From Gammaproteobacteria bacterium (GTDB lineage: Bacteria > Pseudomonadota > Gammaproteobacteria > DATFLL01), in NCBI GenBank assembly GCA_035267785.1, contig DATFLL010000042.1, positions 12,817-76,816 of the forward strand: a stretch of 64,000 bases of DNA, written 5' to 3'. The notes beneath the pieces are model-generated. The model was not told the origin of the DNA, did not search any database, and worked only from the letters and a program-made list of their open reading frames with translations. This document shows, one piece after another, positions 4,326-34,782 of this stretch. Made by a program: the position numbers and the translations under genes. Numbering within the stretch: the stretch's first letter is position 1; each line of letters begins with the position of its first letter.

Positions 4326-5530
4326 ATGACACGCATCGGCACTCCCCTCTCGCCCTCGGCCACCCGCGTCATGCTGCTCGGCAGCGGCGAGCTGGGTAAG
4401 GAAGTCATCATTGCCCTGCAGCGCCTCGGCGTGGAAGTCGTCGCTGTCGATCGCTATCCCAACGCGCCGGCCATCAGGTCGCCCACCGAGCGCACGTCAT
4501 CGACATGACGGACGGCGCAGCGCTGCGGGCCCTGGTCGAACAGGAACGACCCCAGCTCATCGTGCCGGAGATCGAGGCGCTGGCCACCGACGAGCTCGCC
4601 CGCATCGAGGCCGACGGCCTGGCCGAGGTAATCCCCGTGGCGCGTGCCGCGCAGCTCACCATGAACCGCGAGGGCATTCGCCGCCTCGCCGCCGAGGAGC
4701 TCGGTGTGCCCACCTCGCGCTACGCCTTTGCCGAATCGCTGACCGAGCTCCAGTCCGCCATCGACGGCGGCATCGGCTATCCCTGTATCGTCAAACCGAT
4801 CATGTCCTCCTCGGGCAAGGGCCAGTCGACCATACACGGTCCCGACGACGTCAAGGCGGCCTGGGACTATGCGAAGAGCGGCACACGCGTCGATCGCGGC
4901 CGGATCATCGTCGAACAGATGATTCAGTTCGATTACGAGATCACCCTGCTCACGGTGCGGGCCGTCGCCGACGGCGGCGAGGTGGGCACCTACTTCTGCG
5001 AGCCGATCGGCCACCGCCAGGAAAAGGGCGACTACGTGGAGAGCTGGCAGCCCCAGCCCATGAGTCCCACGGCCCTGCAGCGCTCGCAGGAGATCGCCGC
5101 GGCCGTCACCGCCAACCTCGGCGGACGCGGTATCTTCGGCGTTGAGTTGTTCGTCAAGGGCGACGAGGTCTGGTTCAGCGAGGTCAGCCCCCGCCCGCAC
5201 GACACGGGCATGGTCACCATGGCCTCACAGTGGCAGAACGAGTTCGAGCTGCACGCGCGAGCCATTCTGGGGTTGCCCGTGTCGACCGAACTGCGCAATG
5301 CCGGAGCCAGCTCCGTGATCTACGGCGGGGTCGATGCCGAAGGCATCGTCTTCGACGCCGTGGACATCGCCCTGCGGGTGCCGCGCACCGACCTGCGCCT
5401 GTTCGGCAAGCCCGAGTCCTTCACCCGCCGGCGCATGGGTGTGGCCCTGGCCTACGGCGAAGACGTCGGGGACTGCCGTGAGCGCGCCCGACAGAGCGCG
5501 GCGGCTGTCACGCCCGGTTCGGATCGCTGA
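4326..5530 (+). CDS. purT: phosphoribosylglycinamide formyltransferase 2 (PurT), reading frame interrupted by an apparent 1-nt deletion near 4472-4475
   Basis: ORFs 4326..4508 and 4505..5530 together match PurT end to end: [11 protein letters not shown] near the N-terminus, the ATP-grasp core, and [12 protein letters not shown]. Inserting one G after GCCAT at about 4473 restores the conserved [13 protein letters not shown] segment. Confidence 0.85.
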
Positions 5531-5554: not shown

Positions 5555-6502
5555 CTACAGTCGGGTACTGATTCCAACGGCCAGGGCGCCATCGGCGGTG
5601 AGCTGCACGCCGTTGACGTGCTCGTAGATGGGAATCTGCACGAAGCCATAGATCTGGGTTGTTCGGGTCAAGGCATACGCCAGACCCGGACTCAGAGAAA
5701 CCAGCGTCTTTCCACTGTCCTGCGGCTCGGCCGCCGCGCCGCTATCGCGTCCCTTGACCTGCGTATTCAACTGCAGGACAGCTCCCAACTTTCGCCCCAG
5801 ATCATAGCGCAGCCCCAGATCGAACGAGAGACGGTAGCCGGGCTTGAAGTCATCGCGCTCGGCGAGCGGCAGCTGATACAGCCCCTGCAGGAACCAGCTC
5901 GACAAGTCCGCAAGCCGGTCGCGGTGGTAATACGCACCAATGGCCAGATCGGTAGTGCCGGTCCCCGGCTGCAGCGTGCGCTCGGCCAGCTCGCCGTCCG
6001 CATTGGTTACATGGTAGCGGCCCGTCGGCAGCTTGAGCCCGAACTGCACGCCGGCGGTACCGTTACCCTCGACGCCTCGTTGGTATCGCCCCAATACTCG
6101 AACGTCGCCGAGCTCGGTGAAGTCCCAGGTCTCGGAAACGGCGGTACCCGACTCATGGTGAATATGTTCATGATGTCGATCGACTACGGGCACTGACACG
6201 TTCAGACCCCAGTCCTGCGATATCGTATAGTCGAAGGTGGCAAGCCAGTTGCGGTTGACCGTGCGAACCTCGTCGTGGTCGCGTGCGACCTCGCCGACGC
6301 CGAGGTCGGTGGTGCCCGAACGCGGCTGGTCCTGGTCGATGTATTCGGCGCGCAGATCGAGGCGCAGACCAGGCTCGGTCCACACGCCCTGAGTGCCCCA
6401 GTTGGTATTGACCGAACAGAACGTCGAGCCGCAACTGGCCTGTACCTGCGCGGCCCAGGCGGCCGACGCGAAGGCGGCTATAATCAGTGAACGTACTTTC
6501 AC
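5555..6502 (-). CDS. outer-membrane beta-barrel protein with a His-rich motif (HHEHIHHE); possibly MetA-pathway/transporter-like OMP family
   Basis: Signal peptide (MKVRSLIIAAFASAAWAAQVQA), alternating amphipathic beta-strand pattern, aromatic-rich C-terminus. Lies immediately downstream of nirK on the same strand. Confidence 0.55.
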   Translation of the reverse strand: MKVRSLIIAAFASAAWAAQVQASCGSTFCSVNTNWGTQGVWTEPGLRLDLRAEYIDQDQPRSGTTDLGVGEVARDHDEVRTVNRNWLATFDYTISQDWGLNVSVPVVDRHHEHIHHESGTAVSETWDFTELGDVRVLGRYQRGVEGNGTAGVQFGLKLPTGRYHVTNADGELAERTLQPGTGTTDLAIGAYYHRDRLADLSSWFLQGLYQLPLAERDDFKPGYRLSFDLGLRYDLGRKLGAVLQLNTQVKGRDSGAAAEPQDSGKTLVSLSPGLAYALTRTTQIYGFVQIPIYEHVNGVQLTADGALAVGISTRL

Positions 6503-6666
6503 GGTGCGGAAACTCCTTCAACGCACGAGCCGGTCGGACGCTCTCACGAGAGCGCTGACGGGATCGTGTTCGACTGAATGGCTGCGACCGGCGCGCATGC
6601 GAATGCGGCAGGCCACAATGGAGGGAGGGGGCGCGCGTCCTCCGGACGCCGCCCCCGGGTTTGCGT

Positions 6667-7602
6667 TCAGCGCACGAGGATCTGGTCGCCGTGGCCCATC
6701 TTCGGATCGGCGTCCTTGCTGAACATGATCACCGCGATGGCACCGGTCAGGGCCTGCTTCAGAGAATGGCTGACGATGGCGTTCGCGCCTTCCTTCGGCG
6801 AGATCAGATCGAAGATCGCCGCATCGCCCGGACCGACGACATAGCTCTGCATGCCGCGGAAGACGTTGTGCGGATTGCCGCTCGGATAGACCCGGTCCCA
6901 GATGCCGGCGATCGGATGGAAGGACGAGAACTCGTTCGGACCCGCATTGACGAAATAGATGCGTACGCGCTCACCCGGCTTGGCCTGCAGCCAGGTCTTG
7001 GCATTCGGATCGTGAACCGGGTCGTAGCGGAACAGTCGGCCATTGAACACGACGTATTTCCACTTGTTGGCCATCATCTCATTCTTGTCGTCGGGATGCG
7101 GGTAGATCTCCGATTGGATAAGCACGTACTCGCGATCGGCCTTGGGCATGGCCTTGGGATCCTTCGGGTCAACGATGATGACGCCGAACATACCGCGGGC
7201 GATGTGCTGGATCATCGGGTCGGCCCCGCAGTGGTAATAGAACACGCCCGGCTTCGTCGCCACGAAATCGAAGGTTTTCTGATGCCCCGGCTTGATAGGA
7301 CTGAACTCATCCACGACGCTCACGCGTGCGGCATGGAAATCGATGGAGTGCGAGTTCTTGTTGTGCTTATCGTTGATCAGGGTAAAGTGAACGGTATCGC
7401 CCTGTGTGACACGCACCACCGGTCCGGGCACCTCGCCGTCGAAGGTCCAGGTGGCGTACATGGTGCCCTTGTTGTCGATCGGCTGGTCCGTTTCCTTGGC
7501 GTGCAGCGTCACGTTGACAGTCTTGGCCGCGGCGGCCCCGCTCGCGACCAGTGCCGCCGCGAGTACGGCGGCCGTTCCCCAAAACAGCTTTCTTGTATTC
7601 AT
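6667..7602 (-). CDS. nirK: copper-containing nitrite reductase (NirK family)
   Basis: Type-2 Cu motif HSIDFHAA, type-1 Cu site YYHC...H...GMFG, and a two-cupredoxin-domain size of about 311 aa. Signal peptide after MNTRK, with RBS AGGAGA upstream of the ATG at 7602. Confidence 0.85.
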   Translation of the reverse strand: MNTRKLFWGTAAVLAAALVASGAAAAKTVNVTLHAKETDQPIDNKGTMYATWTFDGEVPGPVVRVTQGDTVHFTLINDKHNKNSHSIDFHAARVSVVDEFSPIKPGHQKTFDFVATKPGVFYYHCGADPMIQHIARGMFGVIIVDPKDPKAMPKADREYVLIQSEIYPHPDDKNEMMANKWKYVVFNGRLFRYDPVHDPNAKTWLQAKPGERVRIYFVNAGPNEFSSFHPIAGIWDRVYPSGNPHNVFRGMQSYVVGPGDAAIFDLISPKEGANAIVSHSLKQALTGAIAVIMFSKDADPKMGHGDQILVR

Positions 7603-7621
7603 GCGTTGTTTCTCCTGGTGT

Positions 7622-8011
7622 TTACTTGGAATATCCGGGCCCGCACTTGCACACAACGCGCAGGTAGCTGACCAGTTCGTGAATCTGCTTGTCGCTCAGC
7701 ACCCCCTTCCAGCTCGGCATCAAAACCGATTTATCTACGGCCAGGCCGCCCTCGCGGATGGCCGTATACAGCTCCTTGTTCGGGATATCCGTCATCCCCT
7801 TTGCGTCCGAATGGTCGCGCGGCTGAACGGACATATGAGCGGCGTTGATGCCCTTGCCGTTTCGTTTGACCCCGTGACACTGAACGCAATAGGTGTCGTA
7901 GAGACGCTTGGCCTCTGCTTGATCGCCGGCCGCGTGCGCGTCAGTGGCGGATACGGTGCAGGCCAGTAACAGCGCAGTCGCCCCGAGGGCGTGGCGTAGT
8001 TGTCGATACAT
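7622..8011 (-). CDS. mono-haem cytochrome c (class I), NcgC-like
   Basis: Signal peptide and a single CVQCHG haem-binding motif, with a distal Met-rich region. Lies directly upstream of nirK. Confidence 0.8.
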   Translation of the reverse strand: MYRQLRHALGATALLLACTVSATDAHAAGDQAEAKRLYDTYCVQCHGVKRNGKGINAAHMSVQPRDHSDAKGMTDIPNKELYTAIREGGLAVDKSVLMPSWKGVLSDKQIHELVSYLRVVCKCGPGYSK

Positions 8012-8014
8012 CGT

Positions 8015-8701
8015 CTATTCCTCCTTGCCGTCGAGTGACATCAGGTAACCGGTTAATCGACCGAGATCTCGCGACGAGAGCTCGAGCCGCGGCATCCAGA
8101 CGTGCGGGTCGAACGCCTGTGGGTTCTTGGTGTAGCTGTAGATGTAATCCGGCTGGAGCCGCGCACCCGCGTCGTAGAGTTCCGGCCCGGACACGCCCCC
8201 TTCCCCGCGCGCACTCTGGTGGCAGGCCGCGCAACCACGCAGCTTGACAAAGAACAGCTTGCCGATGCGCCCGCCGGACGCCGATTTGGGTGCCGCGCCT
8301 GTCTCGATGTGGTCCTTCGCACCATGCAGCGTCATCAGGGTGTCGGCGACGGCCCTGGCCTGGGCCCCCGACAGAGGCATGTGCCGGGCCGGCTTCTTGG
8401 CGATAGTGTCGTCCTTAACGCCGGCGGCAACGGCCTTGCGGTAGAACACGCCTGCCGGTCGAATGACCGTCGGGTGCTGCAGCCAGCGCACCAGCCATTC
8501 GCGGCGAAACTTGTCACCGGCGTAGTAAAGGTCGGGTCCCTTTCGCTGCCAGATGTGGTCCAGTCCCTGCGCGGACGGCTTCTTGACGGCGTGACACGCA
8601 ATACACTGTGCATTGATGGTCTTCCAACCGTCCGCCGCGGATGCAGCCCCACTCGCCGCCAGCATGAGGGCGAGCCCGAGCAGTGATAGTCTTGTCTTCA
8701 T
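8015..8701 (-). CDS. di-haem cytochrome c, NcgB-like
   Basis: Signal peptide plus two CxxCH motifs (CIACH and CAACH). Confidence 0.8.
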   Translation of the reverse strand: MKTRLSLLGLALMLAASGAASAADGWKTINAQCIACHAVKKPSAQGLDHIWQRKGPDLYYAGDKFRREWLVRWLQHPTVIRPAGVFYRKAVAAGVKDDTIAKKPARHMPLSGAQARAVADTLMTLHGAKDHIETGAAPKSASGGRIGKLFFVKLRGCAACHQSARGEGGVSGPELYDAGARLQPDYIYSYTKNPQAFDPHVWMPRLELSSRDLGRLTGYLMSLDGKEE

Positions 8702-8722
8702 GTTCGCTCTCTCCTGTCTTGG

Positions 8723-9759
8723 CTATTTGATGGGGACGCCCTTGAACAGCTTGTTGTCGAAGATGCCGTAACCCTTTTTCAGGGATTCTTCATAGAAGAA
8801 GTTCGGCTCGTATTTTTTGTCTTTCCAGACATACCACTTGTCATTGCGGGGTACGCCCTCGTATTCGACGATGGTGATCATGCCGCCCATGGATTTGTCT
8901 CCGTTCATCGTGTGCGAGTCGACATGGTCATGAATGATCCACCGGCCGGGGTTGTTCGCTTCGAACAGGATGTCGTATCGCTCACCCGGACCGAGCAGGA
9001 TCGTGTCGGCCTTGTAGGGATTGGGCAGGGGATGACCGTCCTTGAAGGCGACAGTGAACACGTGCCCGTGGAGGTGAATGGAATGCACCAGATCGCCGGC
9101 ACCGATGAGGCGCAGACGGACGAAATCGCCCTTCTTGACCCGAATGGGCTGGTCCTCGGGAAACGCCTTGCCGTTGATGGTGAAGTAGTCGTAGACGTCT
9201 CCCGGCACGCCGCCGTAGCCGGGCTTCTGGGCCCACTTCGAGTCCCAGTCGTTGAACATGAGCACGAAGTCCTTGGTGACCTTCTTCTCCAGGGCCGTCG
9301 GTTCCTTGGGGTCGATGATCAGCGGACCCCACATGCCGCGCAGCACCACATGCTCGTTGACGTTGACGTGGCAGTGGTACCACATGGTGCCGGCCGGTGC
9401 GGCCACGAACTTATACGTGTAGGTGTCACCGGGCTCGATCGCCGCCTGGGTGACCTTGGGCACACCGTCGTTCTTCCAGGTATTCGTCTGGAACAGGCCG
9501 TGCCAATGAATGGTGTGGGTCAGGGTGGTCAGGTTCGTCACGTGCACGGTGACTTTATCGCCCTCCTTGACATGGATGAGCGGCCCCGGGACCTGCCCGT
9601 TATAGGCGAAGGTGTGAAACTTGATGTTCCCGACCAGCGTGGCGTTGGTGTCTTCGATGGTCATGTCGAACTCGCGGTCCTGGGCACGTGCGCCCAACGA
9701 GTACGCAGACGCCCCCAAGCCGAGCAGCAGTAGCAGTGCCGTTGCATTTATCTTCTTCA
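8723..9759 (-). CDS. two-domain multicopper oxidase, NcgA-like
   Basis: Copper-ligand motifs HWHG, WYHCH, HLHGH and HDHVDSH. Signal peptide MKKINATALLLLLGLGASA. ATG at 9759 with a GGGAG RBS. Confidence 0.85.
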
Positions 9760-9789
9760 TCTCGGGCTCCCGTCTGTTAAGGATGTGTA

Positions 9790-9812
9790 AACATGTATCT
9801 GGTGTACATCTT
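9790..9812. promoter_or_regulatory. NsrR/Rrf2-type operator-like 11-1-11 inverted repeat (AACATGTATCT-G-GTGTACATCTT) in the promoter region of the MCO/cyt c/nirK cluster
   Basis: Imperfect inverted repeat resembling the enterobacterial NsrR box AAGATGCATTT-N-AAATGCATCTT, about 30-50 nt upstream of the cluster start codon. Confidence 0.4.
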
Positions 9813-9992
9813 ATAGACCGGCGGAAGGCCTTGCGCAACCATTTGTTTTTGATGGATATTTGCCCTTGCTAATATTAGGGTCTTCTAACCCATGTTATTT
9901 CAGGAAAAGCGGGACCAATTTGAATGCGCCAGGCGGGAGTGCGGGAAGATCTAAACAGCGACAGCGAAAGGAAGGGGGCGGATAAACAGAAC

Positions 9993-10023
9993 GCCCCACC
10001 TGTGAAGGTGGGGCGTTTTTTTT
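9993..10023. terminator. strong stem-loop (GCCCCACC-tgtgaa-GGTGGGGC) followed by T8 on the + strand and preceded by an A-rich tract; likely a bidirectional or DsrE-gene terminator
   Basis: Perfect 8-bp GC-rich stem with T-run, located just 3' of the minus-strand gene that ends at 10039. Confidence 0.5.
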
Positions 10024-10038
10024 GTCGTACGATTCGGA

Positions 10039-10533
10039 CTACATGCCGGCGGACTTCGGCGGTGCCGGATGGATATAGGCCCAGCCCTGCGACTCGCGCA
10101 GGGTAATCTCGCCCACACCGGACGGCACCATGGTGATGAACGAATAGAGATGCTTGCGATCGATATGCTTCTCACGCAGCGTGTTGGAGCATTGCGCCAG
10201 GATCACACCCTCCTTTTTCAGGTGCTCGAGCTTCTTCTTGAAACCGTTGTTCTTGACGTAGACGTCGAAACCGTTGCTGTTGGCCAACAGCTCGACCTGG
10301 ATATGTCCCTTGACGCGAGGGTCGTTGAGCAGGTTTTCGATGTTGTTCAGCGTCTTCTTGATCGCATGATCGCCGCCGCTGTCGAGATGGAAGATGGCCC
10401 CATACTCGTGGTGCGGGTTGGCCGGCGCGGGCGTCGAAGTGGCGGCCAGGGCCGGACCGGCGGAAAACGCCAGTGCGGCGCCGACGATGCCCGCCAGGGT
10501 CGACAGCTTGGTACGCGGTAAAATACGTTTCAT
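10039..10533 (-). CDS. periplasmic DsrE/DsrF (YchN)-like family protein, putative
   Basis: Signal peptide, about 164 aa, and a conserved Cys in the motif ILAQCSNT resembling DsrE-like sulfur-relay proteins. Family assignment is tentative. Confidence 0.45.
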   Translation of the reverse strand: MKRILPRTKLSTLAGIVGAALAFSAGPALAATSTPAPANPHHEYGAIFHLDSGGDHAIKKTLNNIENLLNDPRVKGHIQVELLANSNGFDVYVKNNGFKKKLEHLKKEGVILAQCSNTLREKHIDRKHLYSFITMVPSGVGEITLRESQGWAYIHPAPPKSAGM

Positions 10534-10803
10534 GGAATATCTCCTTTGATGGTTATTGTTAGTTTTTCGTTATTGTTTAGACGATCGATCACCCGCGTCA
10601 ATTCGAGCGCAGGCAATCTAAAATCTTTAGACCCGCCAAGTTGCCGTTTGGTTCGTACGGTAGCGGCACCAAATCGTCAGCGGTTCCGCTTGAGTCGATT
10701 CTCGGGAAAGCGGCCGAGGCCGCTGATTGGGTGGGGAAGTTCCGTGCAGGAGCCCGCGTTCGAAGCACAACGGCCGCGAAGCCGCACCGAGCCTGATGTA
10801 GCT

Positions 10804-10862
10804 TGACAATTCCTCACGGAGGCCTAGTATGAATTCCTAACATATCTTTTATATACCGCTTT
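10804..10862 (+). promoter_or_regulatory. sigma70-like promoter (TTGACA-16nt-TAGTAT) followed by a second NsrR-like 11-1-11 repeat (AACATATCTTT-T-ATATACCGCTT, 10840..10862)
   Basis: The -35/-10 hexamers match consensus. The downstream repeat shares architecture and about 16 of 22 positions with the 9790..9812 site. Lies upstream of the ferredoxin/reductase/truncated-haemoglobin fusion gene. Confidence 0.35.
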
Positions 10863-10949
10863 AAGAAGCTCCGGCCCAAGCCTGCCATGGGATAGACCCA
10901 GTATCCGTCGCCCATGCCCCGCCCGGAATCCACGTCAACCGGATGGGTC

Positions 10950-12536
10950 ATGCGTATGTCGAAACTGGTCTACAACGACGTCTCGTATGAACGGGGCAAA
11001 CACGAGTCTGTTCTGGACGCGCTACTGCGCCAAGGCGTCAACGTCCCCTTTTCCTGCCGCCGCGGCAGCTGCCAGGTCTGTCTGATGCGCGCGACGGCGG
11101 GCGACGTGCCCGAGGACGCGCAGCGCGGACTGCGCCCGGAGTTGCGTGCGTTGGGCTATTTCCTGCCCTGCCAGTGCGTGCCGGCCGGCGATTTCGACGC
11201 GGCGCCGCCGCGGGACGCGGACCTGTACGTCAAGGCCCTGGTCCACGACAAGGAGCGGGTCGCCCCCGACGTTGTCCGGCTGCTGCTCGAGGTCGGCTTC
11301 GGCTTTCATTATCGTGCCGGCCAGTTCGTCAACCTGCGCCCACCCGGCGGTCCGCCTCGCAGTTATTCATTGGCCAGCCTCCCCGAGGACTACTTCCTCG
11401 AGCTGCACGTCAAACGGATGGAAAACGGCCTGGTCAGCGGTTGGATCCACGATTCCGTGCAGATCGGCGAGGCGGTGGACATTCAGGGGCCGCAGGGCGC
11501 CAACTACTACCTCAGCGGCGACCCGACGCAGCCCCTGCTGCTGGTGGCCTCGGGTACGGGTCTGGCGCCCCTCATAGGTATCGCGCGCGACGCGCTGCGC
11601 GCCGGCCACACCGGGCCGATGCACCTCTACCACGGCGCCCACGAGGAACAGGGACTGTACCGCCATGACGAGCTCAAGGCACTGGCCCGCAAGTATCCTC
11701 AGGTCCAGTACATCCCATGCGTGTCCGGACCCGGCGGCGCCCCGCCGGAAGCCGCGGCCGGCCGGGCCGAGGACGTGGCATTCGAGCGCCAACCGGACCT
11801 GAGCGGCTGGCGTGTCTACCTGGCCGGTCCGCCGGAGATGGTCGAGAGCGGGTGCGGGCGTGCCGCGCGCGCCGGAGCGCACCCCTCGCAGATACATGCC
11901 GACCCGTTCGAGTACCGTGACCTGCGCCAAGGTGGCGTGTCGAAAGTCAGCCTGGAGGACGAACGCCGCCGCGACCCGCCACCCGACCCCGAGCTGTGGG
12001 CCGCGCTCGATGACGGCCGCCTGCTATTGGAGATACTGCGGGACTTCTATTCGCGGGTTTATGCCGACCCGCGTCTGTCTCCCTTCTTTCATGGCGTTAC
12101 CATGCAGCGTCCGATCGAAAAACAATATCTGTTCCTCAAGCAGGTGTTTTCGGGCGAGCCGGTCTATTTCGGCGACCGCCCGCGCAATGCGCACCACTGG
12201 ATGGTGATTTCCGACGATCTCTTCGACTACCGCGAGGAGCTCATGATGACGTGCGTGCGCGAGCACGGCCTGCCCGAGAATCTCGTGCGTCGATGGCGCG
12301 CCATCGAGGAGATCTACCGCCCGGATATCGTGAAATCCGCCCCCTGGACCCGACGCATCGGCGACATCGAACTGCCGGTAGAGGGCTTCGGCGAGGAATG
12401 CCTGAGCGCGGCGACGATTTGCGACGGCTGCCAGGCCGAAATCGACGCCGGCGAGACCGTGCGCTACCACCTGCGCCTGGGAACGACCTACTGCCGTGCA
12501 TGCTCGGGCGACAAACCCTTGGCCGAACGGCGCTGA
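10950..12536 (+). CDS. multidomain oxidoreductase: plant-type 2Fe-2S ferredoxin / FAD-NAD(P) ferredoxin-reductase-like domain / group II truncated haemoglobin (HbO-like) / C-terminal CxxC...CxxC zinc-ribbon
   Basis: Ferredoxin: SCRRGSCQVC...LPCQC. Reductase: RSYSLAS FAD-binding and GTGLAPL NAD-binding motifs. trHb: FYSRVYADPRLSPFF...NAHHWMVI with a proximal His. Tail: CDGC...CRAC. Confidence 0.8.
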   Translation: MRMSKLVYNDVSYERGKHESVLDALLRQGVNVPFSCRRGSCQVCLMRATAGDVPEDAQRGLRPELRALGYFLPCQCVPAGDFDAAPPRDADLYVKALVHDKERVAPDVVRLLLEVGFGFHYRAGQFVNLRPPGGPPRSYSLASLPEDYFLELHVKRMENGLVSGWIHDSVQIGEAVDIQGPQGANYYLSGDPTQPLLLVASGTGLAPLIGIARDALRAGHTGPMHLYHGAHEEQGLYRHDELKALARKYPQVQYIPCVSGPGGAPPEAAAGRAEDVAFERQPDLSGWRVYLAGPPEMVESGCGRAARAGAHPSQIHADPFEYRDLRQGGVSKVSLEDERRRDPPPDPELWAALDDGRLLLEILRDFYSRVYADPRLSPFFHGVTMQRPIEKQYLFLKQVFSGEPVYFGDRPRNAHHWMVISDDLFDYREELMMTCVREHGLPENLVRRWRAIEEIYRPDIVKSAPWTRRIGDIELPVEGFGEECLSAATICDGCQAEIDAGETVRYHLRLGTTYCRACSGDKPLAERR

Positions 12537-15692: not shown

Positions 15693-18167
15693 TCAGGCGC
15701 CGTCCGGAGCGGCTTCGGCGACAGTCGCCTCGCCGTTGGCGCGGGTGGGAGACGCGCCGGCAGGCGCCGGGTCCATCGGCGCGACGCCCATGCCCCGTTC
15801 ATAGCCGAGCGCCAGCTCGGCAAGCCGGGCGAACACACGCCGGTGCAGCGACGTCAGGGCCTCGGACAATGCCCGGCCGTATTCCGTCACACTGGCCGGC
15901 TCGTTGGGATGCAGCGCCGGCAGTTGCTCGTGCAGCTGCGCGAACACGGTGGTCTCTCCGCCGGCGTGCGAGAATGGATAGTTGATCTTCGCCAAGTCCG
16001 TCTTGATGCGCTCCAGGTGTTCGGCAAGGCCGCTCGTATCGAGGTCGGCGCCCGGACCATCGCTGTTGGGCGAAGCGTTCAGCCCGCGATTGAGCGTATG
16101 GTAGCTCTCGCCGAGCGCAGCCAACTGAGTCTGAACGGCCAACAGGCGTTCGACCTCCCGGGCGATCTCGGAGTGCTCTCCGCCCTCCTGTATGAGGCCG
16201 CCCAATGCGATGGCCAGGCGCTCGGCCAATACGGCTTCGTGACGGCTCAACGCGGCATCCAGATCGAGTCGCTGCGCTTCGAGCTCGGACGCCGGCACAC
16301 GGTCGGCGATGGGTTCCTCCAGTGAAAGGGCTGCCCCCTCAAAGCTCTGTTCACCGGCGGGGACGCTGGGCTGTTCCGCCGGATGGCGGTAGCGGTTCAC
16401 GCACCGCGCGATCTCCGGCATGTTCTCGCCGAGCCGGGCGACAAGGGCGTTGAGGCGCTCGCGCCGCGCCTCGGGGGAGAGCGCCTGGTAGTCGCGCCAG
16501 TCCTGCGGCGCGACGAAGCGGTCGGCTACGAACAACTCGCGGCAATAGTCGGACAGCACCTCGGCCTGAGTCGGCGCCTTTACCGGCGTCGCGCCGCTCG
16601 ACGGCGTCGATGAGGCCTGCGCCTCTTGCGCGGGCGCGATGCCGAGCACGCCGCGGTAGAACCCCTCGGTGATTCTGGCCGCCAGCCGATCGTATTTCTT
16701 GACTAGAGCCCGCGCCGGGATATCGAGCGTAAACGAGGCGGGCGCGTTCAACGCCTCGGCCTTTGCGATGCGCTCGGCATCCGGCGGATCGGGCGAGAAC
16801 GGATTCGCCTCTGCCGCATCGTCCTCGTCCTCTTGCGATCGAATCGTCGAGCCCGCCAGCGAGGCCAGCTCGTCCGCCCGGCGCACCATCGCTTCGGCCA
16901 GATCCTCGGGAAGCCGTCCAGGCGGACGGTCGCCGCTCATCTCGTGACGAATATCGTCGAACGCCTGCCGGAGCAAGAGCGTGCGCTCGGCCGTGGCCCG
17001 GAACTGAGCGCTGCCGGCGAGCTGGGCCTGATAGTAGTCCGCGTCGAGCGCCATTCGGCGCCGCATGCTCTGGCTCAACGGGCGACTCAGCCGGGCCAGG
17101 CCGTCCAGGGCACGACGCTGAGCTTCGAATGTCCATTCGACCGCCCGGGACAGGCTGGCAATCCAACTCACGGGATGCTCCTGCCAGGCGGCGATCGCGA
17201 CATCCCAGGCGTCGCGCTCATGGACCGCACGGTAGAGCCAGCGATGCGCCCGGCGCACGAGATGGGCGGCGCGCGCGTCCGGGCCCGGGGCAAAATTGCC
17301 GAACTCGTGCCCCAGCACCCCCACCAATTGACGGGTCGACAGCCCGGCGAGCAGCGGCATCCCGATGGTCAGCTCCAAGCCACCGCGCGAGACCTCCAGC
17401 GAGGCAGTGGGCTCGATATCCACCCAGGTACGCTCGGGGCGCGGTGCCCCGAGGGTTTCGGCAACCTGCTGCGCGAGGGCGAACAGTACGGGCTCGCGCA
17501 GCGGCTCGAGCTCGACCCGCTCGGGCGGGAGCGGCAACTTGGCCAGCACGGGTTTGAGCAGGTAGATGAACGCGACGGCGCCCAGCGCGATCGGCAGCAG
17601 ATACAGGAACCACGCGCCTATGAGCGAGCGCTGCTCCAGGTACAGCAAACCGTGGAATGCATGCCAGATCGTCGCGAAGCCGACGGCGATCACCAATAAG
17701 GCGTAAAGCGCCGGAACGACCAGGGCCCCGGACGCGGCGCCAATGAGCCCGGTGCGCCCGGCCGCACTCGGGGGCGAAGACGGCAGACGGGTGGAAAACA
17801 GGCCCGGCATATCGCCGGGGCCGAGGCGTATTCCGCCCGGGCCTCTCGACGCCTCGGCTCCGGCAGGCCGGGCATCGGGATTTGCGCTTGGGTTCGACGT
17901 CGGGCCGCCCGGCGTGGGCGAGGGGTGCGCCGGCGGCTCGGCGATGACCTCGCACACGGCGCCCGCTTCGTTGAAAATGGCTTGCAGGCGCAGGGCCTGC
18001 GCGTGGAGCAGGCCGCGTTTGACGACCACCCGCGCACCGGAGAAAAGCTTTTCGACATGATCCGATCGCAATTTCAGCGCAGCGGTTAACTGCGCCTTGA
18101 CCTGATCGGGGTCGCAGTCGGACCGTACGGTACCGTCAAACGCTACCGCGTAGCGTGGCTCGGCCAT
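15693..18167 (-). CDS. large hypothetical membrane protein with M48/M56-like segment carrying a degenerate HEXXH (HEFGN)
   Basis: 824-aa protein starting at MAEPRYAVAF. N-terminal soluble domain, Pro-rich linker, TM helices, VLGHEFGNF, and a long alpha-helical C-terminal region. Confidence 0.55.
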   Translation of the reverse strand: MAEPRYAVAFDGTVRSDCDPDQVKAQLTAALKLRSDHVEKLFSGARVVVKRGLLHAQALRLQAIFNEAGAVCEVIAEPPAHPSPTPGGPTSNPSANPDARPAGAEASRGPGGIRLGPGDMPGLFSTRLPSSPPSAAGRTGLIGAASGALVVPALYALLVIAVGFATIWHAFHGLLYLEQRSLIGAWFLYLLPIALGAVAFIYLLKPVLAKLPLPPERVELEPLREPVLFALAQQVAETLGAPRPERTWVDIEPTASLEVSRGGLELTIGMPLLAGLSTRQLVGVLGHEFGNFAPGPDARAAHLVRRAHRWLYRAVHERDAWDVAIAAWQEHPVSWIASLSRAVEWTFEAQRRALDGLARLSRPLSQSMRRRMALDADYYQAQLAGSAQFRATAERTLLLRQAFDDIRHEMSGDRPPGRLPEDLAEAMVRRADELASLAGSTIRSQEDEDDAAEANPFSPDPPDAERIAKAEALNAPASFTLDIPARALVKKYDRLAARITEGFYRGVLGIAPAQEAQASSTPSSGATPVKAPTQAEVLSDYCRELFVADRFVAPQDWRDYQALSPEARRERLNALVARLGENMPEIARCVNRYRHPAEQPSVPAGEQSFEGAALSLEEPIADRVPASELEAQRLDLDAALSRHEAVLAERLAIALGGLIQEGGEHSEIAREVERLLAVQTQLAALGESYHTLNRGLNASPNSDGPGADLDTSGLAEHLERIKTDLAKINYPFSHAGGETTVFAQLHEQLPALHPNEPASVTEYGRALSEALTSLHRRVFARLAELALGYERGMGVAPMDPAPAGASPTRANGEATVAEAAPDGA

Positions 18168-18398
18168 CGCATCCTCCGCCCGACATGGGTCTGTGCCCCC
18201 CCTTCGCGGTCCGACGTGCGCGGCACTGCCCCCAGAAAACGCCGACACGCCCTTCGCTAAATTGAACGGGATCACGGCGCGGCCGGTCAAGCGAACCGAT
18301 CCCGCAGAGCACACCGTTCGTCGGCTCGCAGAGGCCGTCCATCATCTGGTGTCGTCGACCCACCGCGAACCGGCATGTCCGGCGGTCTGAATCCGCAC

Positions 18399-19316
18399 TC
18401 AGCGCCGGAAATACGTCATGGACGGCTTCGGCCGGCCCACAAAGCACGAATGGGTGAAGCCGTAATGGCGCAGAATGCGGTGCGCCTGGCGGGCCTCGGC
18501 CTCCTTGGCGCCGAAATCCAACAGCCAGTGCGAGCCGTCGACGATCTTCCAGTGGCCATTGACCCGGCTGACTTCAATGCGGCTGGGATTGAAGCTCACG
18601 CAGTCCTCGCCCCGCAGCGCGCCGCTGGGGCTGCGGCCCCGGGACAGGTAATACTCCATGGACGGGTGCGGGCGGCCGACGAAGCACTGCTTGTCCATCC
18701 GATAGTGGCGCAGGATGCGCAGCCCCTGGCGCGCCTCGGCCTCCTTTGCGCCGAAGTCCTTGAGCCATATCTTCCCGACCGTGATCTTCCAATGGCCGTC
18801 GATCCGCTGCATCCGCGCGCGTCGATAGTTGAAGGCGATGCAGTCCTCACCGGACAGTTGGGCGGCGGCGGTGCCGCCCGTGGCCGCACGACCCTGGCGA
18901 ACGAAGCGTTCGGTGCGCGTATAGTTACTGCGCCCGCTGTTGTCCGTAAAGCGCGTATACAATTCGACGCGCAAGCGGTCTTTGCGCTGGGGATGGAGCA
19001 CCAGGAGGGTTTCGGAAAAACCCGTCTTGAACACGGCGCTCACCGCCCGCGCATTGGCCGCCAGCGGCGAATTGACGGCCGGCGCATAGGCGTGCGCCCG
19101 GACCACGCCCCAGTCGCAGTCCTGCGGATGGCACTTGCCCCAGGCGCGGACAGTGACGTCGTTGCCGCGGACGTTCACTTGCAGGCGCGTGAGGGCCGGA
19201 CTCCCGGCATTGGCGTTACTCCAGTTGCCGGCGAAATCCGACAGCGCGGCATAGACGCCGGCAGAGTACAGCGTGGACATTAGGGCGGTGACAACGAGAA
19301 TGCTGCGCATTCGCAT
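18399..19316 (-). CDS. secreted hypothetical protein with a tandemly duplicated ~70-aa domain
   Basis: Signal peptide. Two near-identical units: GEDC(I/V)(A/S)FN...NGHWKI..G..WL.DFGAKEAEARQ..RILRHY....CFVGRP.PSM.Y. Confidence 0.6.
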   Translation of the reverse strand: MRMRSILVVTALMSTLYSAGVYAALSDFAGNWSNANAGSPALTRLQVNVRGNDVTVRAWGKCHPQDCDWGVVRAHAYAPAVNSPLAANARAVSAVFKTGFSETLLVLHPQRKDRLRVELYTRFTDNSGRSNYTRTERFVRQGRAATGGTAAAQLSGEDCIAFNYRRARMQRIDGHWKITVGKIWLKDFGAKEAEARQGLRILRHYRMDKQCFVGRPHPSMEYYLSRGRSPSGALRGEDCVSFNPSRIEVSRVNGHWKIVDGSHWLLDFGAKEAEARQAHRILRHYGFTHSCFVGRPKPSMTYFRR

Positions 19317-19460: not shown

Positions 19461-22400
19461 TCAGGCCGCGTTTCGCGCTTCGCGGCTCGAGCGCCGGCGC
19501 AACCGGTCGCTGAGGTGCTCCATCGCGACATAAAAGGCCGGTGTCACGAAAAGAGTCAGCGTCTGGGAGAACAGCAGCCCGCCCACCGTCGCGATACCCA
19601 GCGCCTGGCGCGAATGCGCCCCGGCGCCGATGCCCAGCGCGATCGGCAGCGTGCCGAGAATGGCGGCGAAGGTGGTCATCATGATCGGACGATAACGCAC
19701 GCGGCAGGCCTCGATGATCGCCTCGGCTGCCGTGGCATCGTGGCTGCGCCGGTACTGCAGCGCAAAGTCGACCATGATGATGCCGTTCTTCTTGACCAGA
19801 CCGACCAGGAGTATCAGGCCCGCGAAGCTGAAGATGTTCAGCTCCTGACCGAACAGCAGCAGCGCCACGATCGCCCCGAATCCGGCGAGCGGCAGGGCGG
19901 TGAGGATGGTCAGCGGGTGGACGAAGTGCTCGTATAGGACGCCGAGCACCATATAGATCACGAGGATGGTGAAGGCCAGCAGCAACGGTAGGTCGTGCAT
20001 GGAGGACTGGAAGGTCCGTGCCGTGCCGGCGAACGTGCCAGTGACGTCCGCCGGCAGGACCGAGGCGGCCACCTCCTCGATCTTCGCAGTCACCTCACCC
20101 AGCGATGCCCCGGGGGGCAGGTTGAACGAGAGCGTGACCGACGGCAGCTGCGCATAGTGGTTGATGGACAACGGTCCGACGCTCTGGCCGATTCGTGCCA
20201 CGGCTGACAGCGGCACGAGACGCCCGTTGCTGCCGGGCACGTACAGTGCGTTGAGCGCGTTGACGTCCTGCTGGTAACGCGGGGCGAGCTGCAGAATCAC
20301 CGGGTAACTGTCGGTCGCACCGTAAATGGTACTGACCTGGCGCCCGCCGTAGGCGTCGTACAGCGCCTGCTCGATAGCGTTGGCCGACACGCCCAGCGCC
20401 GCCGCTCGTTCGCGGCGAATGCGTACGTTGACCTGCGGGTTGCTCAGCTCGGCATCGAGGCTGACGTCCTGGATGTCCGACACGTTGCGCAGGCGCGCGA
20501 GCATCTCGTTGCCCGTCGCGAACAGTCGGTCGACATCAGAGCTTTGCAGCACGTACTGATACGAGCTCGTGCTCGCATGTCCGCCGATGCGTATCGCCGG
20601 CGGGTTGCGAAAGAATACCCGCATGCCATAGATCGGCCGCACTGCCTGGCGCAGCTGCTGGATGACCTCTTCGGCGCTGTCGCTGCGCTCACTGGCGGGT
20701 TTGAGATGGATGATCAGACGGCCGATGTTGCTGCCGCGCGTGCCGCCAAATCCCTGCCCCGCGCTCGACATAACGCCTGCCACGTTGGGATTGTCGCGCA
20801 CGATTTTTGCCGCCTGCGCCTGCAGATCGCGCAGCTCGGCAAACGTGATCCCTTCCGGCGCGCGCGTGTTGCCAATAATCAGGCCCGTGTCCTCGTTGGG
20901 AATGAAGCCCTTGGGCACCACGAAAAACAACCACACGCTCAAAGCGAACAGGCCCGCGGCCACCCACAACGTGGTGCGAAAGTGGGTCACGCTCCAGCGC
21001 AGTCCGGCGGTGTACCACGCCAGACTGCGCGAGAAGGCATGCTCGAACCAGTCGTAGAGCCGGCCGTGGTGCGGCGTGGTACCGAGGTAGCGGCTGGCGA
21101 GCATGGGAGTCAGCGTCAGCGAGACGACCGCCGAAAGCAGCACCGCTATGCCGAGGACGGCGGCGAACTCGGCGAACAGGCGGCCGATGATGCCGCCCAT
21201 GAACAGAATCGGAATGAATACCGCAACCAGCGAAAGCGTCATCGACACGACGGTAAAGCCGATCTCGCGGGTGCCGAGCAGCGCGGCCTTCATGCGATCG
21301 TATCCCTTCTCCAAATATCGCACGATGTTCTCCTGGACCACGATTGCATCGTCGACGACGAAGCCCACCGACAGCGTCAAGGCCATCAATGACAGCGTGT
21401 CCAGGCTGTAGCCCAGGAGGTACATCACCGCCATGGTGCCGATGAGGGCTGTGGGCAGGGACAGGGCGCTGATTGCCGTGGCGCGCAGGTTGCGCAGGAA
21501 CATCAGTATCACGCCCACCACCAGCACCATCGCCAACAGCAGGGTGAAGGTCACGTCGTTGATGCTTTCGTGGATGAACTCGGCGCGGTTGTGAATGATA
21601 TTGATGCGGGCATCGCCCGGCAGCTGGGCCTCGATCTGGGGCAGCAGCGCCTTGACGCGGCGCACGACCTCGACCGTATTGGCCCCGGCCTGGCGCTTGA
21701 CCGCGAGGATGATCGCCGGGCGTCCGTTAAAGGTCGTGAGCTGCTTTTCGTTTTCGACCGAATCCTCGGCCCGGCCGATATCGCTAAGACGCACCGGCGC
21801 ACCGTTGGCATAGGCCACGACCAGCCGGTTGTACTGCCTGGCGCTGTCGAGCTGCCCGTCGGCCGCCACGGTGTAGGAGCGCGTGCTGCCGTCGAGCGTA
21901 CCGGCCGGGGTATTGGAGTTGCCCTGCTGCACGGCATCGATGACCTGCGCAACCGACAGGTTGCGCGCCTGCAGCGCGTAGGGGTTGAGCCGAATGCGCA
22001 CCGCGTATTTGTGCGAGCCGAAGACCAGAACCTGGGCCACGCCGGGCAGGGTCGATATGCGATCGGCCACCCGAGTCTCGGCATACTGGTCGAGCTTGGT
22101 CAGCGGCAGGGTCTTGGCGCTGAAGGCCATATAGATCACGGCCGAGTCCGCCGGATTGACCTTACGCAGCGTCGGCAGCGAGGTCATCTCCGGCGGCAAG
22201 CGGCGGCTGGCCTGCGAGATCGCCGACTGCACGTCCTGCGAGGCCGAGTCGATGTTGCGCGACAAATCGAACTGCAACGTGATGCGTGTCTGCCCCAGCG
22301 AGCTGGTGGACACCATCGAGTCGATACCGGCAATCGAGGAGAATTCGCGCTCCAGCGGCGTGGCCACGGAGCTGGCCATGGTGCGCGCGCTGGCCCCCGG

Positions 22401-22553
22401 CATCTCCGCGCTGACGACGATGGTGGGAAAATCGACCTGCGGCAGCTCGCTGATCGGCAGCTCGCGGTAGGCGACCAGACCGAACACCACCAGGGCCGCC
22501 ATCAGGATGGTGGTCATGACCGGACGGTGGATGAACGGCGCGGCGACGTTCAC
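19461..22553 (-). CDS. RND multidrug efflux permease (HAE1/AcrB family)
   Basis: 1030 aa with 12 TM helices and two large periplasmic loops. Starts MNVAAPFIHRPVMTTILMAALVVFGLVAY. Confidence 0.9.
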   Translation of the reverse strand: MNVAAPFIHRPVMTTILMAALVVFGLVAYRELPISELPQVDFPTIVVSAEMPGASARTMASSVATPLEREFSSIAGIDSMVSTSSLGQTRITLQFDLSRNIDSASQDVQSAISQASRRLPPEMTSLPTLRKVNPADSAVIYMAFSAKTLPLTKLDQYAETRVADRISTLPGVAQVLVFGSHKYAVRIRLNPYALQARNLSVAQVIDAVQQGNSNTPAGTLDGSTRSYTVAADGQLDSARQYNRLVVAYANGAPVRLSDIGRAEDSVENEKQLTTFNGRPAIILAVKRQAGANTVEVVRRVKALLPQIEAQLPGDARINIIHNRAEFIHESINDVTFTLLLAMVLVVGVILMFLRNLRATAISALSLPTALIGTMAVMYLLGYSLDTLSLMALTLSVGFVVDDAIVVQENIVRYLEKGYDRMKAALLGTREIGFTVVSMTLSLVAVFIPILFMGGIIGRLFAEFAAVLGIAVLLSAVVSLTLTPMLASRYLGTTPHHGRLYDWFEHAFSRSLAWYTAGLRWSVTHFRTTLWVAAGLFALSVWLFFVVPKGFIPNEDTGLIIGNTRAPEGITFAELRDLQAQAAKIVRDNPNVAGVMSSAGQGFGGTRGSNIGRLIIHLKPASERSDSAEEVIQQLRQAVRPIYGMRVFFRNPPAIRIGGHASTSSYQYVLQSSDVDRLFATGNEMLARLRNVSDIQDVSLDAELSNPQVNVRIRRERAAALGVSANAIEQALYDAYGGRQVSTIYGATDSYPVILQLAPRYQQDVNALNALYVPGSNGRLVPLSAVARIGQSVGPLSINHYAQLPSVTLSFNLPPGASLGEVTAKIEEVAASVLPADVTGTFAGTARTFQSSMHDLPLLLAFTILVIYMVLGVLYEHFVHPLTILTALPLAGFGAIVALLLFGQELNIFSFAGLILLVGLVKKNGIIMVDFALQYRRSHDATAAEAIIEACRVRYRPIMMTTFAAILGTLPIALGIGAGAHSRQALGIATVGGLLFSQTLTLFVTPAFYVAMEHLSDRLRRRSSREARNAA

Positions 22554-25005: not shown

Positions 25006-26040
25006 TCAGCGCCGCAGGCGCGCCGGCGGCGTCTTCGGCTGAACCCCCAGGTTCGACGGCGCATTCGGGGTGGCACTGCAGTGCACGCTGAAGTTCACCT
25101 GCTTGGAGTTGATCTTGTTCGGCGACAACACGGTCAGGCGCGCCCAGCCGTTGGTCGTGGTCGAGTTGATAGTGATCTTCTCGTAGAAGGTCTTCGCACC
25201 TGCATGGGTAAAGATCAGAGTCTTCGACGGCGGCGTACCGGCACCGATATGCGGGATGCGGTATTTGACGCTCCCCGCACCGCTGGCGACGATGGAGCCG
25301 CTGATGGTGACGGTGGCGGGACACTTGCTGGTCTGCTGCGGCGGCGTGGCAAGTATGGATACATGCGTCACCTGGGTCGGCGCCTTCATCTGATTCGGAC
25401 CCTTCGGACCGGGTGTCTGGCCCGGCATCAGGACGCCGCCGATCCCGCCAGCCGAGCCGCTCTTGCAGACGACCTTCAGAGTCGTATTGAACTTATCCGA
25501 ACCGTAGGTGCCGCCGCTGTGGCCCGGCCGGCCGCACAGCGCCACGCCCGTGAGCGTCACGCTCCGGTTGATCGTGTGCTTGCTGGCGAGGATCTGCTGC
25601 TTGTTGGCGCCCTGGGACAGGCGGGTATTCATGTAACTGCGGCACATGGCCACAGGGTCGGCGTGCAGCTTGTTCGTGGGGACGTGCAGCACGACATCCT
25701 GATAGGGCAGGTCCTTGAGGCCACGGGTAGGAACACTGACGCGATAGTTGTCGCTGTACTCCAGAACCGTGCCGCCGACGTTCTCGCTGCCGAAGGCGAC
25801 GAAGCCCTCCTTCAATCGGTTCGCCCCGTTGCACCCCGCCTTCATCTGCACGTGGTAGGGAACGCTCGAGGTGGTGGTCTTGGCGTACTGGCCGTTGATC
25901 GGTTGAACGTAGACCGTTCCATCATGAATATTGATGCCTGCCTTCCTGACATCGACGTAGTTGACCGGTCCCGCGGCAGCAACCCCGCTCATAATCAAAA
26001 GCCCCCCCGCAAGCCACCCCCGACAATAAAGGCTGTTCAT
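25006..26040 (-). CDS. secreted hypothetical protein (344 aa)
   Basis: Signal peptide, Gly/Thr/Ser-rich. Somewhat lower GC than its neighbours. Confidence 0.5.
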   Translation of the reverse strand: MNSLYCRGWLAGGLLIMSGVAAAGPVNYVDVRKAGINIHDGTVYVQPINGQYAKTTTSSVPYHVQMKAGCNGANRLKEGFVAFGSENVGGTVLEYSDNYRVSVPTRGLKDLPYQDVVLHVPTNKLHADPVAMCRSYMNTRLSQGANKQQILASKHTINRSVTLTGVALCGRPGHSGGTYGSDKFNTTLKVVCKSGSAGGIGGVLMPGQTPGPKGPNQMKAPTQVTHVSILATPPQQTSKCPATVTISGSIVASGAGSVKYRIPHIGAGTPPSKTLIFTHAGAKTFYEKITINSTTTNGWARLTVLSPNKINSKQVNFSVHCSATPNAPSNLGVQPKTPPARLRR

Positions 26041-34332: not shown

Positions 34333-34782
34333 TCACCACTTGCGGTACGGCAGAAATTTACCGTTGTAGGTAATCTGGACGCGATCGCCCTTGGGATCGG
34401 CAATGCGCTCAATCTCGATTTCGAAATCGATCGCACTCATGATGCCGTCGCCGAACTCTTCGTGGATCAGGGCCTTGATAGTGGTCCCGTATACCTGCGA
34501 TATCTCGTGCAGCCGGTAAATAAGGGGGTCGACCGGTACGGCCGAGTCCAGCGAGCCCTTCATCGGGCACTCGAGCAGAGCCGACTTCAAGCCGCTGTCG
34601 CCGCTCATGCCGAGTATTTCGAGCAGGGCATCCGCCTCGGTCTCGTCCATACTGGCCTGGCCCAAGATGGCCGCTGTCACCCAGACCTTGTGCCGCCCGA
34701 CGGCCTCGGCAATGGCTGCAAAGCTCAGGCCCTTGTCGTGCTTGGCCTCCAACAGCAATTCAGTGGCATCTTCACGTCGCAC
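34333..34782 (-). CDS. cynS: cyanate hydratase (cyanase)
   Basis: Strong similarity to CynS throughout (HKVWVTAAILGQ, YRLHEISQVYGTTIKALIHEEFGDGIMSAIDF). Probable GTG start at 34782, 8 nt after GGAGG. Confidence 0.85.
   Translation of the reverse strand: MRREDATELLLEAKHDKGLSFAAIAEAVGRHKVWVTAAILGQASMDETEADALLEILGMSGDSGLKSALLECPMKGSLDSAVPVDPLIYRLHEISQVYGTTIKALIHEEFGDGIMSAIDFEIEIERIADPKGDRVQITYNGKFLPYRKW

Follow-up and report, generated by a model that had tools for sequence, protein, structure and literature searches.

The subject of this report is a cluster of five open reading frames (ORFs) on the minus strand, between positions 5555 and 9760, of a 64-kb stretch of DNA (the window) from the metagenome-assembled genome (MAG) of a gammaproteobacterium. 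An earlier reading of the letters alone (the sequence-only reading) had described the five ORFs in about the same way. Four of them are counterparts of the ncgABC-nirK genes of Nitrosomonas europaea, and the fifth encodes a small outer-membrane β-barrel protein (OMP). The features of the locus are as follows, with lengths in amino acids (aa) or nucleotides (nt).

8723..9760, minus strand: ncgA, two-domain multicopper oxidase, predicted to be periplasmic, 345 aa including the signal peptide
8015..8701, minus strand: ncgB, di-haem c-type cytochrome, 228 aa
7622..8011, minus strand: ncgC, mono-haem c-type cytochrome, 129 aa
6667..7602, minus strand: nirK, copper nitrite reductase of the N. europaea clade, 311 aa
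5555..6502, minus strand: outer-membrane β-barrel (OMP), candidate copper channel, 315 aa
6627..6656, minus strand: GC-rich stem-loop that starts 11 nt past the nirK stop codon, without a T-tract
9790..9812, no strand assigned: NsrR-type operator AAGATGTACACCAGATACATGTT, ending 30 nt upstream of the ncgA ATG
9810..9838, minus strand: possible sigma-70 promoter, TTGCGC (9838-9833), 17-nt spacer, TATAAG (9815-9810)
9988..10019, no strand assigned: bidirectional intrinsic-terminator hairpin, 14-bp stem with 8 GC pairs, and T-run (terminator scan)

The ncgA gene begins with the ATG at 9760 (not 9759) and stops at 8723; a longer, TTG-initiated ORF extends up to 9838, and use of that start is unlikely. 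Within ncgA-ncgB-ncgC-nirK the intergenic gaps are 21, 3 and 19 nt, and a gap of 164 nt (6503-6666) separates nirK from the OMP gene. The terminator hairpin at 9988-10019 is the 5′ boundary of the unit, dividing a DsrE-like gene from the ncgA promoter.

The oxidase NcgA contains the Pfam domains Cu-oxidase_3, Cu-oxidase_2 and Cu-oxidase, and matches the PDB entry 3G5W with an expect value (E) of 5e-158 and 68% identity over 317 ungapped residues, the copper-ligand motifs HTIHWHG, WYHCH, HSIHLHGH and HDHVDSH being kept in the alignment. NcgB has two CxxCH motifs (CIACH and CAACH) and cytochrome c matches in Pfam, and NcgC has a single such motif (CVQCH) and matches Pfam Cytochrome_CBB3. NirK matches the PDB entry 4KNS with E 4e-144 and 73% identity over 285 ungapped residues; the ligand motifs HSIDFHAA, YHCGADPMIQHIARGM, FHPIAG and VSHS are kept, all type-1 and type-2 copper ligands are intact, and the catalytic Asp and His of nitrite reductase are retained in the same alignment. 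The runners-up after 4KNS are Geobacillus and AniA-type NirKs, and class I enzymes reach only about E 1e-27. We take 3G5W to be the oxidase and 4KNS the NirK of N. europaea (Lawton et al. 2009 and 2013; PMC11761707 lists the former). Assignment of NcgA to CopA/CueO, which the sequence-only reading had named as the outcome that would count against its view of the oxidase, was rejected: the two models score 160 and 90 bits, far under their cut-offs of 479 and 525.

That reading had held that the content and order of the four genes are those of the ncgABC-nirK operon of N. europaea, and had proposed a product-by-product comparison. The comparison was made with a contig, L176 (52% GC), which was found by searching a protein collection with the 4KNS chain and which encodes a NirK 100% identical to that chain. 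On L176 the order is a divergent Rrf2 regulator, oxidase, di-haem cytochrome, mono-haem cytochrome and NirK. All four products of the window match their counterparts position by position: NcgA matches the first gene of the four at 65% identity (E 2e-174), NcgB the di-haem cytochrome at 50% (E 3e-79), NcgC the mono-haem cytochrome at 64% (E 2e-51), and NirK the NirK of L176 at 73%. Thus, the claim is borne out, and it is practically certain that 6667-9812 is an ncgABC-nirK operon. The nsrR/ncgABC-nirK system of N. europaea (the NE0924-NE0927 region) is reportedly the subject of Beaumont et al. 2004 and 2005; the four genes, their order and their tight spacing are common to that system and to the window, and both the N. 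europaea-type L176 and the window have an NsrR-type operator upstream of ncgA. The window differs in three respects: no nsrR was detected beside the cluster or elsewhere in the 64 kb; the host is a gammaproteobacterial MAG of 66% GC, whereas N. europaea is a nitrifier of 51-52% GC; and nirK is followed on the 3′ side by the barrel gene, whereas in L176 a convergent cyanophycin synthetase gene lies there.

The distribution of the cluster was surveyed by scanning the window NirK against one genome per species, which gave 80 loci. The genes ncgA-ncgB-ncgC-nirK are colinear in 72 of these loci from species-representative genomes and, because the same order is found in so many independent genome loci, a chance explanation for the four-gene order is untenable. 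Contig ends truncate six of the remaining eight loci. The other two, L039 and L063, are exceptions to an almost universal association: their nirK belongs to the N. europaea clade (71-73% identical), and the 5-6.7 kb available upstream of it contain no ncgABC. The hosts of the cluster include Thiobacillus, Sulfuriferula, Cupriavidus, Duganella, Massilia, Noviherbaspirillum and Methylacidiphilum, as well as Acidobacteriota, Verrucomicrobia, Steroidobacteraceae, Sphingomonadales and Nitrospirae. None of these listed hosts is an ammonia oxidiser, and the earlier statement that the arrangement is rare outside ammonia oxidisers does not hold. Clusters of the ncg type had already been reported in Nitrobacter (PMC5080386) and in Zetaproteobacteria (PMC3603346), and when five ammonia oxidisers were compared, the operonic form was found only in N. 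europaea, N. eutropha being said to share it (PMC4940428). A plasmid search with NirK gave no match at E <= 1e-60. The cluster in the window is an ordinary copy of a known nitrite/nitric oxide (NO) module, and it is the appended barrel that makes it a variant.

The exact proteins of the window are those of a public 'Gammaproteobacteria bacterium' MAG (HKK05057-HKK05065) and also occur in several metagenomes; the contig is present in ERZ27257072, JGI 3300007533 and SRR31012010. GC is 63-70% in the window and 66% in the host MAG, and the host is an uncultured high-GC gammaproteobacterium that is probably not an ammonia oxidiser. From the barrel gene to the DsrE-like gene (5555-10533) the GC per gene is 58-64%, as against 65-70% in the flanking genes; this low GC suggests horizontal acquisition of the 5555-10533 block.

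Most loci have an NsrR-type inverted repeat of 23 nt upstream of ncgA, usually 45-95 nt from the start codon, and L176 has such a box as well. In the whole 64-kb window, a match of >=15/22 to the NsrR consensus occurs once, at the repeat at 9790-9812. A weight matrix derived solely from the other loci also ranks this repeat first (21.9 bits), with the box at 10839-10861 second (15.3 bits). The putative -10 element TATAAG overlaps the operator. This promoter (TTGCGC-17-TATAAG) was read by eye from the sequence and is not among the sites given by a consensus promoter scan. An Rrf2/NsrR-like gene adjoins ncgA in 35 of the 80 loci, mostly in divergent orientation; a search of the 64-kb window for an nsrR/Rrf2-like gene found none, the operator being present, and the regulator may be encoded elsewhere in the genome. 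Going by these sites, control of the ncgABC-nirK operon by NsrR is quite probable.

In most of the 80 loci, nirK is followed by genes resembling those for copper efflux. CusB/CusA-like genes lie 3′ of nirK in 56-61 of the 80 loci, at a median gap of 68 nt: one encodes a fusion protein with a heavy-metal-binding domain, for which CusB is the best NCBIfam match, and the other a CusA/CzcA-family pump, which scores 1,257 bits where the cut-off is 701. In the example examined (L009, 9366-13810), no outer-membrane factor accompanies these genes. No description of a linkage of the nitrite module to a copper pump was found in the literature. The clusters of this kind (e.g. in Thiobacillus, Cupriavidus and Duganella/Massilia) share the four genes and the operator with the window, at NirK identities of 68-81%; they run on into the CusB-like adaptor and the CusA/CzcA pump, whereas the window has the barrel in that place. 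Neither gene follows nirK in L176. A search of the 64-kb window for a CusB-like gene found none, and the RND pump encoded at 19461-22553 is of the MdtBC type and is not a heavy-metal pump; none of the latter adjoins the cluster.

The gap between nirK and the barrel gene contains the stem-loop at 6627-6656, whose stem is 13 bp long when the gap is folded to its minimum free energy (z = -2.7 for the whole gap). The relative L091, which has an OMP 85% identical, carries a hairpin of different sequence at the same position after nirK. The stem-loop may be a terminator, an attenuator or an mRNA stabiliser. A promoter scan found no promoter-like site in the 164-nt gap, and the OMP gene has its own ribosome-binding site.

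The barrel protein carries ...VVDRHHEHIHHESG... at residues 107-120 (the DRHHEHIHHE region, in which HHEHIHHE is an HxHxH motif), an N-terminal Cys pair in the form of CGSTFC, and an HDE motif. Its match to Pfam Phenol_MetA_deg (PF13557), at 28.4 bits against a cut-off of 22, is weak and covers residues 127-288 only, so that the OMP represents a distant subfamily of these channels. There is no NCBIfam model for it, and a sequence-profile search of the PDB with the OMP family gave nothing at E <= 1. The AlphaFold2 model (mean pLDDT, the predicted local distance difference test, 82.5) has as its best Foldseek matches the COG4313 channel Pput2725 (4RL8) and FapF (5O65), with template-modelling (TM) scores of 0.64-0.79; for 4RL8 the Foldseek probability is 1.0, and the TM score is 0.64-0.68 when query-normalised and 0.75-0.79 when target-normalised. 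The OMP is thus, as modelled, a small outer-membrane barrel of the 12-stranded type, and its predicted fold is like those of 4RL8 and 5O65 in combining such a barrel with an N-terminal segment. It differs from them in sequence (14-18% identity), and the Cys pair, the HDE motif and the HxHxH motif are specific to the OMP family. Members of this family are labelled 'TonB-dependent receptor', 'transporter' or 'hypothetical' in annotations. The first of these labels, which is the public annotation of the window protein, was rejected: the TonB_dep_Rec_b-barrel score of 19.8 bits falls short of the cut-off (27), there is no plug domain, and a protein of 315 residues whose fold matches small barrels does not have the 22 strands and plug (>600 residues) of such receptors. 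A role as a substitute for CusC was also rejected, as there is no OEP (PF02321) match and the fold is that of a small monomeric-type barrel, not of a TolC-like trimer.

The family is large, with at least 2,994 clusters at E <= 1e-5 among the 8,000 candidates examined. In 93 members, C24, C29, E78, N83, H111 and Q178 are invariant, and H76, H113 and H115 are conserved except in one divergent subgroup. Residues 76-93 and 98-117 are predicted strands in the AlphaFold2 model, joined by a 4-residue turn; if this register holds, H76 would lie opposite H115 and E78 opposite H113, and H76, E78, H111, H113 and H115 would all be on one face.

What links the family to copper is largely the company that its genes keep. 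On the barrel side, eighty metagenomic loci carrying relatives of the barrel were surveyed, with neighbouring genes called by a gene caller based on GC at the third codon position (GC3). Just one partner recurs on the strand of the barrel gene, a small exported protein encoded 4-125 nt upstream, which Pfam assigns to DUF2946 in 7 of 10 tested examples. In a census of 73 same-strand neighbours of the barrel, DUF2946 comes first by a wide margin (14/73 by Pfam). DUF2946 is CruR, a leader ORF that heads copper-acquisition operons and in which a CxxC motif senses copper and a RAPP motif arrests translation (PMC9426467), and DUF2946 mutants show cofitness with a copper receptor (bioRxiv 10.1101/072470). 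When a DUF2946 hidden Markov model was combined with a stricter CxxC/RAPP pattern, the leader was found upstream in 23 of the 71 OMP-bearing loci with enough flank, and once a second sequence class, missed by Pfam, is counted, it is found in 37 of 56 metagenomic loci. Proteins of this second class have a signal peptide, a His-rich start (AHGxH), a Cys cluster (SHCPxDD...CxC) and a C-terminal PPRAPPxSS; they were seen at L097, L099, L105, L109, L111, L122, L125, L131, L135, L146, L165, L167 and L174. By these motifs, the second class probably represents a new sequence type among CruR-like leaders that sense copper. An ending of the RAPP type occurs in just 65 of the 15,346 ORFs of all the fetched DNA. 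One frame within the 164-nt gap of the window reads ...GRAPPP... and was considered as a CruR remnant; it has neither a start codon nor a signal peptide, it continues for a further 35 codons, and the GC-rich hairpin itself encodes the motif, and it was rejected as a coincidence.

The partners of CruR described to date are TonB-dependent transporters, PepSY_TM, ScoC, PCuAC, YcnI, CopC, MbnPH and AhpC_TSA, and no small barrel is among them (PMC9426467); according to a 2026 paper, the known copper-specific outer-membrane transporters are few and all belong to the TonB-dependent superfamily (PMC12914433). On the megaplasmid of Ralstonia solanacearum OE1-1, independent annotation gives, in this order, a DUF2946 protein, a 'transporter' that is 32% identical to the window barrel, and an 'alkyl hydroperoxide reductase' (AhpC) (RSOE_02405 to RSOE_02395). 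The closest analogy is with cruR-crtA(bfrG)-bp2921 of Bordetella pertussis (PMC9426467, PMC12914433), in which a TonB-dependent copper transporter stands directly behind the RAPP leader, as do most relatives of the window barrel. The B. pertussis transporter is 22-stranded and TonB-dependent, whereas the barrels of the family are of about 290 residues and TonB-independent, and the window copy is without a leader. Outer-membrane copper importers of the NosA/OprC type (cited in PMC9426467) are TonB-dependent proteins of more than 600 residues that support copper enzymes, e.g. nitrous oxide reductase. The concept of a copper entry route in the outer membrane that is genetically tied to periplasmic copper enzymes is common to them and to the window barrel, but there is no relation in sequence or fold. 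The guess in the sequence-only reading that the OMP has to do with copper or another metal has thus gained circumstantial backing from the HxHxH motif and Cys pair, from the CruR/DUF2946 leaders and from the Cus-like neighbours, and we regard it as rather likely that the family is copper-related.

The position of the barrel beside ncg/nirK genes varies. The five-gene order of the window is kept in the relative with an OMP 85% identical; in a relative with an OMP 77% identical the contig is too short to show the order, and at OMP identities of <=60% the contexts differ. Among the 80 nirK loci, a barrel of the core family lies downstream of nirK in L028 and L029 only, and in L001 and L054 a divergent family barrel lies upstream on the opposite strand. 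In L028 and L029, nirK is followed by the gene of an exported heavy-metal-binding protein of 100 residues and then by the barrel gene; a CusB-like gene comes 23 nt further on, with a CusA-like gene after it. The small exported protein (L029 4531-4833; L028 ~1875-1964) consists of little beyond its heavy-metal-binding domain (CPMHP...CPICKM). In the metagenomic locus L127, nsrR and the operator are followed by nirK, ncgB, ncgC and ncgA, and the barrel gene comes about 10 nt after ncgA. Thus, there are no fewer than three different arrangements in which the barrel adjoins ncg/nirK genes (the window lineage, L127, and L028/L029), and it is missing from L176 and from 76 of the 80 nirK loci. It is a facultative, repeatedly recruited neighbour and not a conserved member of the operon. 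As an extension of the operon, which the earlier reading proposed, the OMP is at most putative: it is lineage-specific, it lies past a conserved stem-loop, and cusBA-like genes usually occupy its place.

The account that we prefer, with moderate confidence, is that the window holds a true ncgABC-nirK operon together with a barrel that passes copper for its enzymes. NsrR bound at the operator, over the promoter, would keep the operon off until NO or nitrite inactivates NsrR, as the operator and the genetics of N. europaea suggest. All four ncgABC-nirK products would be exported to the periplasm, where NirK would reduce nitrite to NO, and the di-haem NcgB and mono-haem NcgC would carry electrons to it. 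By analogy with the published mutant phenotypes of N. europaea, NcgA would prevent the toxicity of NirK acting alone; the ncg/nirK mutants of that species show nitrite phenotypes (as summarised in PMC5080386). The barrel would let copper cross the outer membrane. Uptake is favoured over exit, given that operons headed by CruR serve copper acquisition and are repressed by copper; with the Cus-linked copies in view, efflux stays open. The invariant Cys pair and the His/Glu patch would be the binding or selectivity site, and the copper would supply the six copper sites of each NcgA-plus-NirK protomer pair. Since the leader ORF is absent and the gene lies 164 nt past nirK, after the stem-loop, the window barrel would depend either on transcripts that read through from the NO-responsive promoter or on a promoter of its own. 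That the barrel functionally serves the ncgABC-nirK operon is, taken by itself, a proposition to which we give slightly less than an even chance. More tentative still is the wider proposal that the barrel is the founder of a family (at least 3,000 clusters) of TonB-independent, copper-specific channels that in most bacteria are switched by CruR and that, in the present lineage and independently in others, have been wired directly to an NO-responsive operon of copper enzymes. If such wiring were true, copper import would here be coupled to the demand of cuproenzymes and not to copper status.

Several points weigh against this account. A barrel of the family is near nirK in only 4 of the 80 loci, and two of the four lack the His triad. 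The strong and positionally conserved stem-loop between nirK and the OMP gene may end transcription. A search for a CruR-like ORF across the 64-kb window found none, so that the window copy is not headed by CruR. In L028/L029 the barrel is tied to an efflux pump, which makes the direction of transport ambiguous, and elsewhere it has a mixed set of neighbours (sucCD, a cyclase, DoxX, two-component systems). The clustering of His and Glu in the barrel depends solely on the strand register. Of its relatives with solved structures, the COG4313 channel transports hydrophobic molecules and FapF amyloid subunits, and neither transports metals; the barrel family is experimentally uncharacterised in all its members.

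The strongest alternative, although we think it unlikely, is that the OMP is an unrelated neighbour with its own promoter, cut off from nirK transcription by the stem-loop, and that it is, like other COG4313/Phenol_MetA_deg channels, an uptake channel for a non-metal (small hydrophobic or other) solute whose adjacency to nirK is an accident inherited in one lineage. The 164-nt gap with its conserved hairpin, the separate ribosome-binding site, the many unrelated contexts of the family, the low share of nirK loci with such a barrel (about 5%) and the non-metal nature of the closest solved folds are all as this alternative would have them. It does not account for the recurrence of the adjacency in the three or more arrangements, which occur in unrelated lineages, in one case with a gap of about 10 nt, and at a frequency far above that expected of an arbitrary pair; nor for a copper-sensing leader ORF as the dominant partner of the family; and an invariant Cys pair and a conserved His triad do not characterise channels for hydrophobic solutes. 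An improbable alternative is that of the sequence-only reading itself, by which the locus is a five-gene operon, a special extension, with unusual physiology, of an arrangement almost confined to ammonia oxidisers: the five genes do share a strand and the lower-GC block, and their order is kept in the 85% relative, but the four-gene cluster is widespread in non-nitrifiers and the barrel is absent from L176 and most other loci. The least probable alternative makes the whole module one of periplasmic copper homeostasis, with NcgA as a cuprous oxidase (CueO/PcoA-like), the cytochromes and 'NirK' in copper redox, and the barrel as an exit replacing CusBA; the CusB-like adaptor and CusA/CzcA pump that so often follow nirK, and the L028/L029 barrel directly before cusB-like and behind a small heavy-metal-binding protein, would suit it, but it runs counter to a NirK that keeps its copper ligands and catalytic Asp/His and is 73% identical to an enzyme with demonstrated nitrite reductase activity, to a regulator and operator conserved as NO-sensing NsrR-type and not CueR/CusR-type, to the nitrite phenotypes of the N. 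europaea mutants, to the low CopA/CueO scores of NcgA and to the lack of a heavy-metal RND pump beside the window cluster.

Three independent kinds of neighbourhood link the barrel family to copper: CruR leaders, Cus-like operons and operons of copper enzymes. The barrel is a concrete candidate for TonB-free passage of copper over the outer membrane, and this can be tested in the genetically tractable Ralstonia solanacearum. As for the four-gene cluster, ncgABC-nirK is not a speciality of nitrifiers; it is a widely shared cassette under NsrR control that is usually joined to a copper-efflux pump. Its spread matters wherever metagenomic nirK counts are interpreted as 'denitrification' or 'nitrifier denitrification'.

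Four further genes had been named by the sequence-only reading as the context of the cluster (cyanase, DsrE-like, sulfurtransferase and phosphoketolase).

34333-34860: cyanase
60724-61641: rhodanese
54398-56686: phosphoketolase-like gene
10039-10533, minus strand: DsrE-like gene, MTH1491 match with E 5e-16

All are present, but the cyanase, rhodanese and phosphoketolase-like genes are far from the cluster. Rfam and tRNA scans of the whole 64-kb window returned nothing. Four sizeable ORFs, all on the minus strand and with a good coding signal (GC3 of 0.74-0.84), match no Pfam family at E <= 1e-4 (15693-18314, 18399-19316, 25006-26040 and 51377-52792). On the other side of the barrel gene, purT (4326-5530, plus strand) is split into ORFs of 60 and 341 residues by a 1-nt deletion within a run of G at about 4469-4470 (GGG to GG); the gene is intact, at 401 residues, in two other assemblies of the locus, and a third shares the deletion. 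The split purT is a genuine pseudogene or else an artefact of assembly.

The DsrE-like protein is exported and its gene lies between two NsrR-type promoters, with a promoter-like site of its own and a strong terminator. A periplasmic location is unusual for the DsrE-like fold family, and a weak homologue is found nearby in one of the 80 loci (L030). The second of the two promoters belongs to a gene at 10914-12536 (plus strand), for which a promoter-like site at 10803-10830 (TTGACA-16-TAGTAT) is followed by the NsrR-matrix box at 10839-10861. Its product is a 540-residue fusion of a 2Fe-2S ferredoxin, an FAD/NAD reductase and a truncated haemoglobin with a Cys-rich C-terminal tail; no such fusion was found beside the ncg clusters of the 80 other loci. 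From its domains and its upstream box, the fusion protein may be an NO-detoxifying enzyme, unlike flavohaemoglobin in its make-up, that belongs to the same NO regulon.

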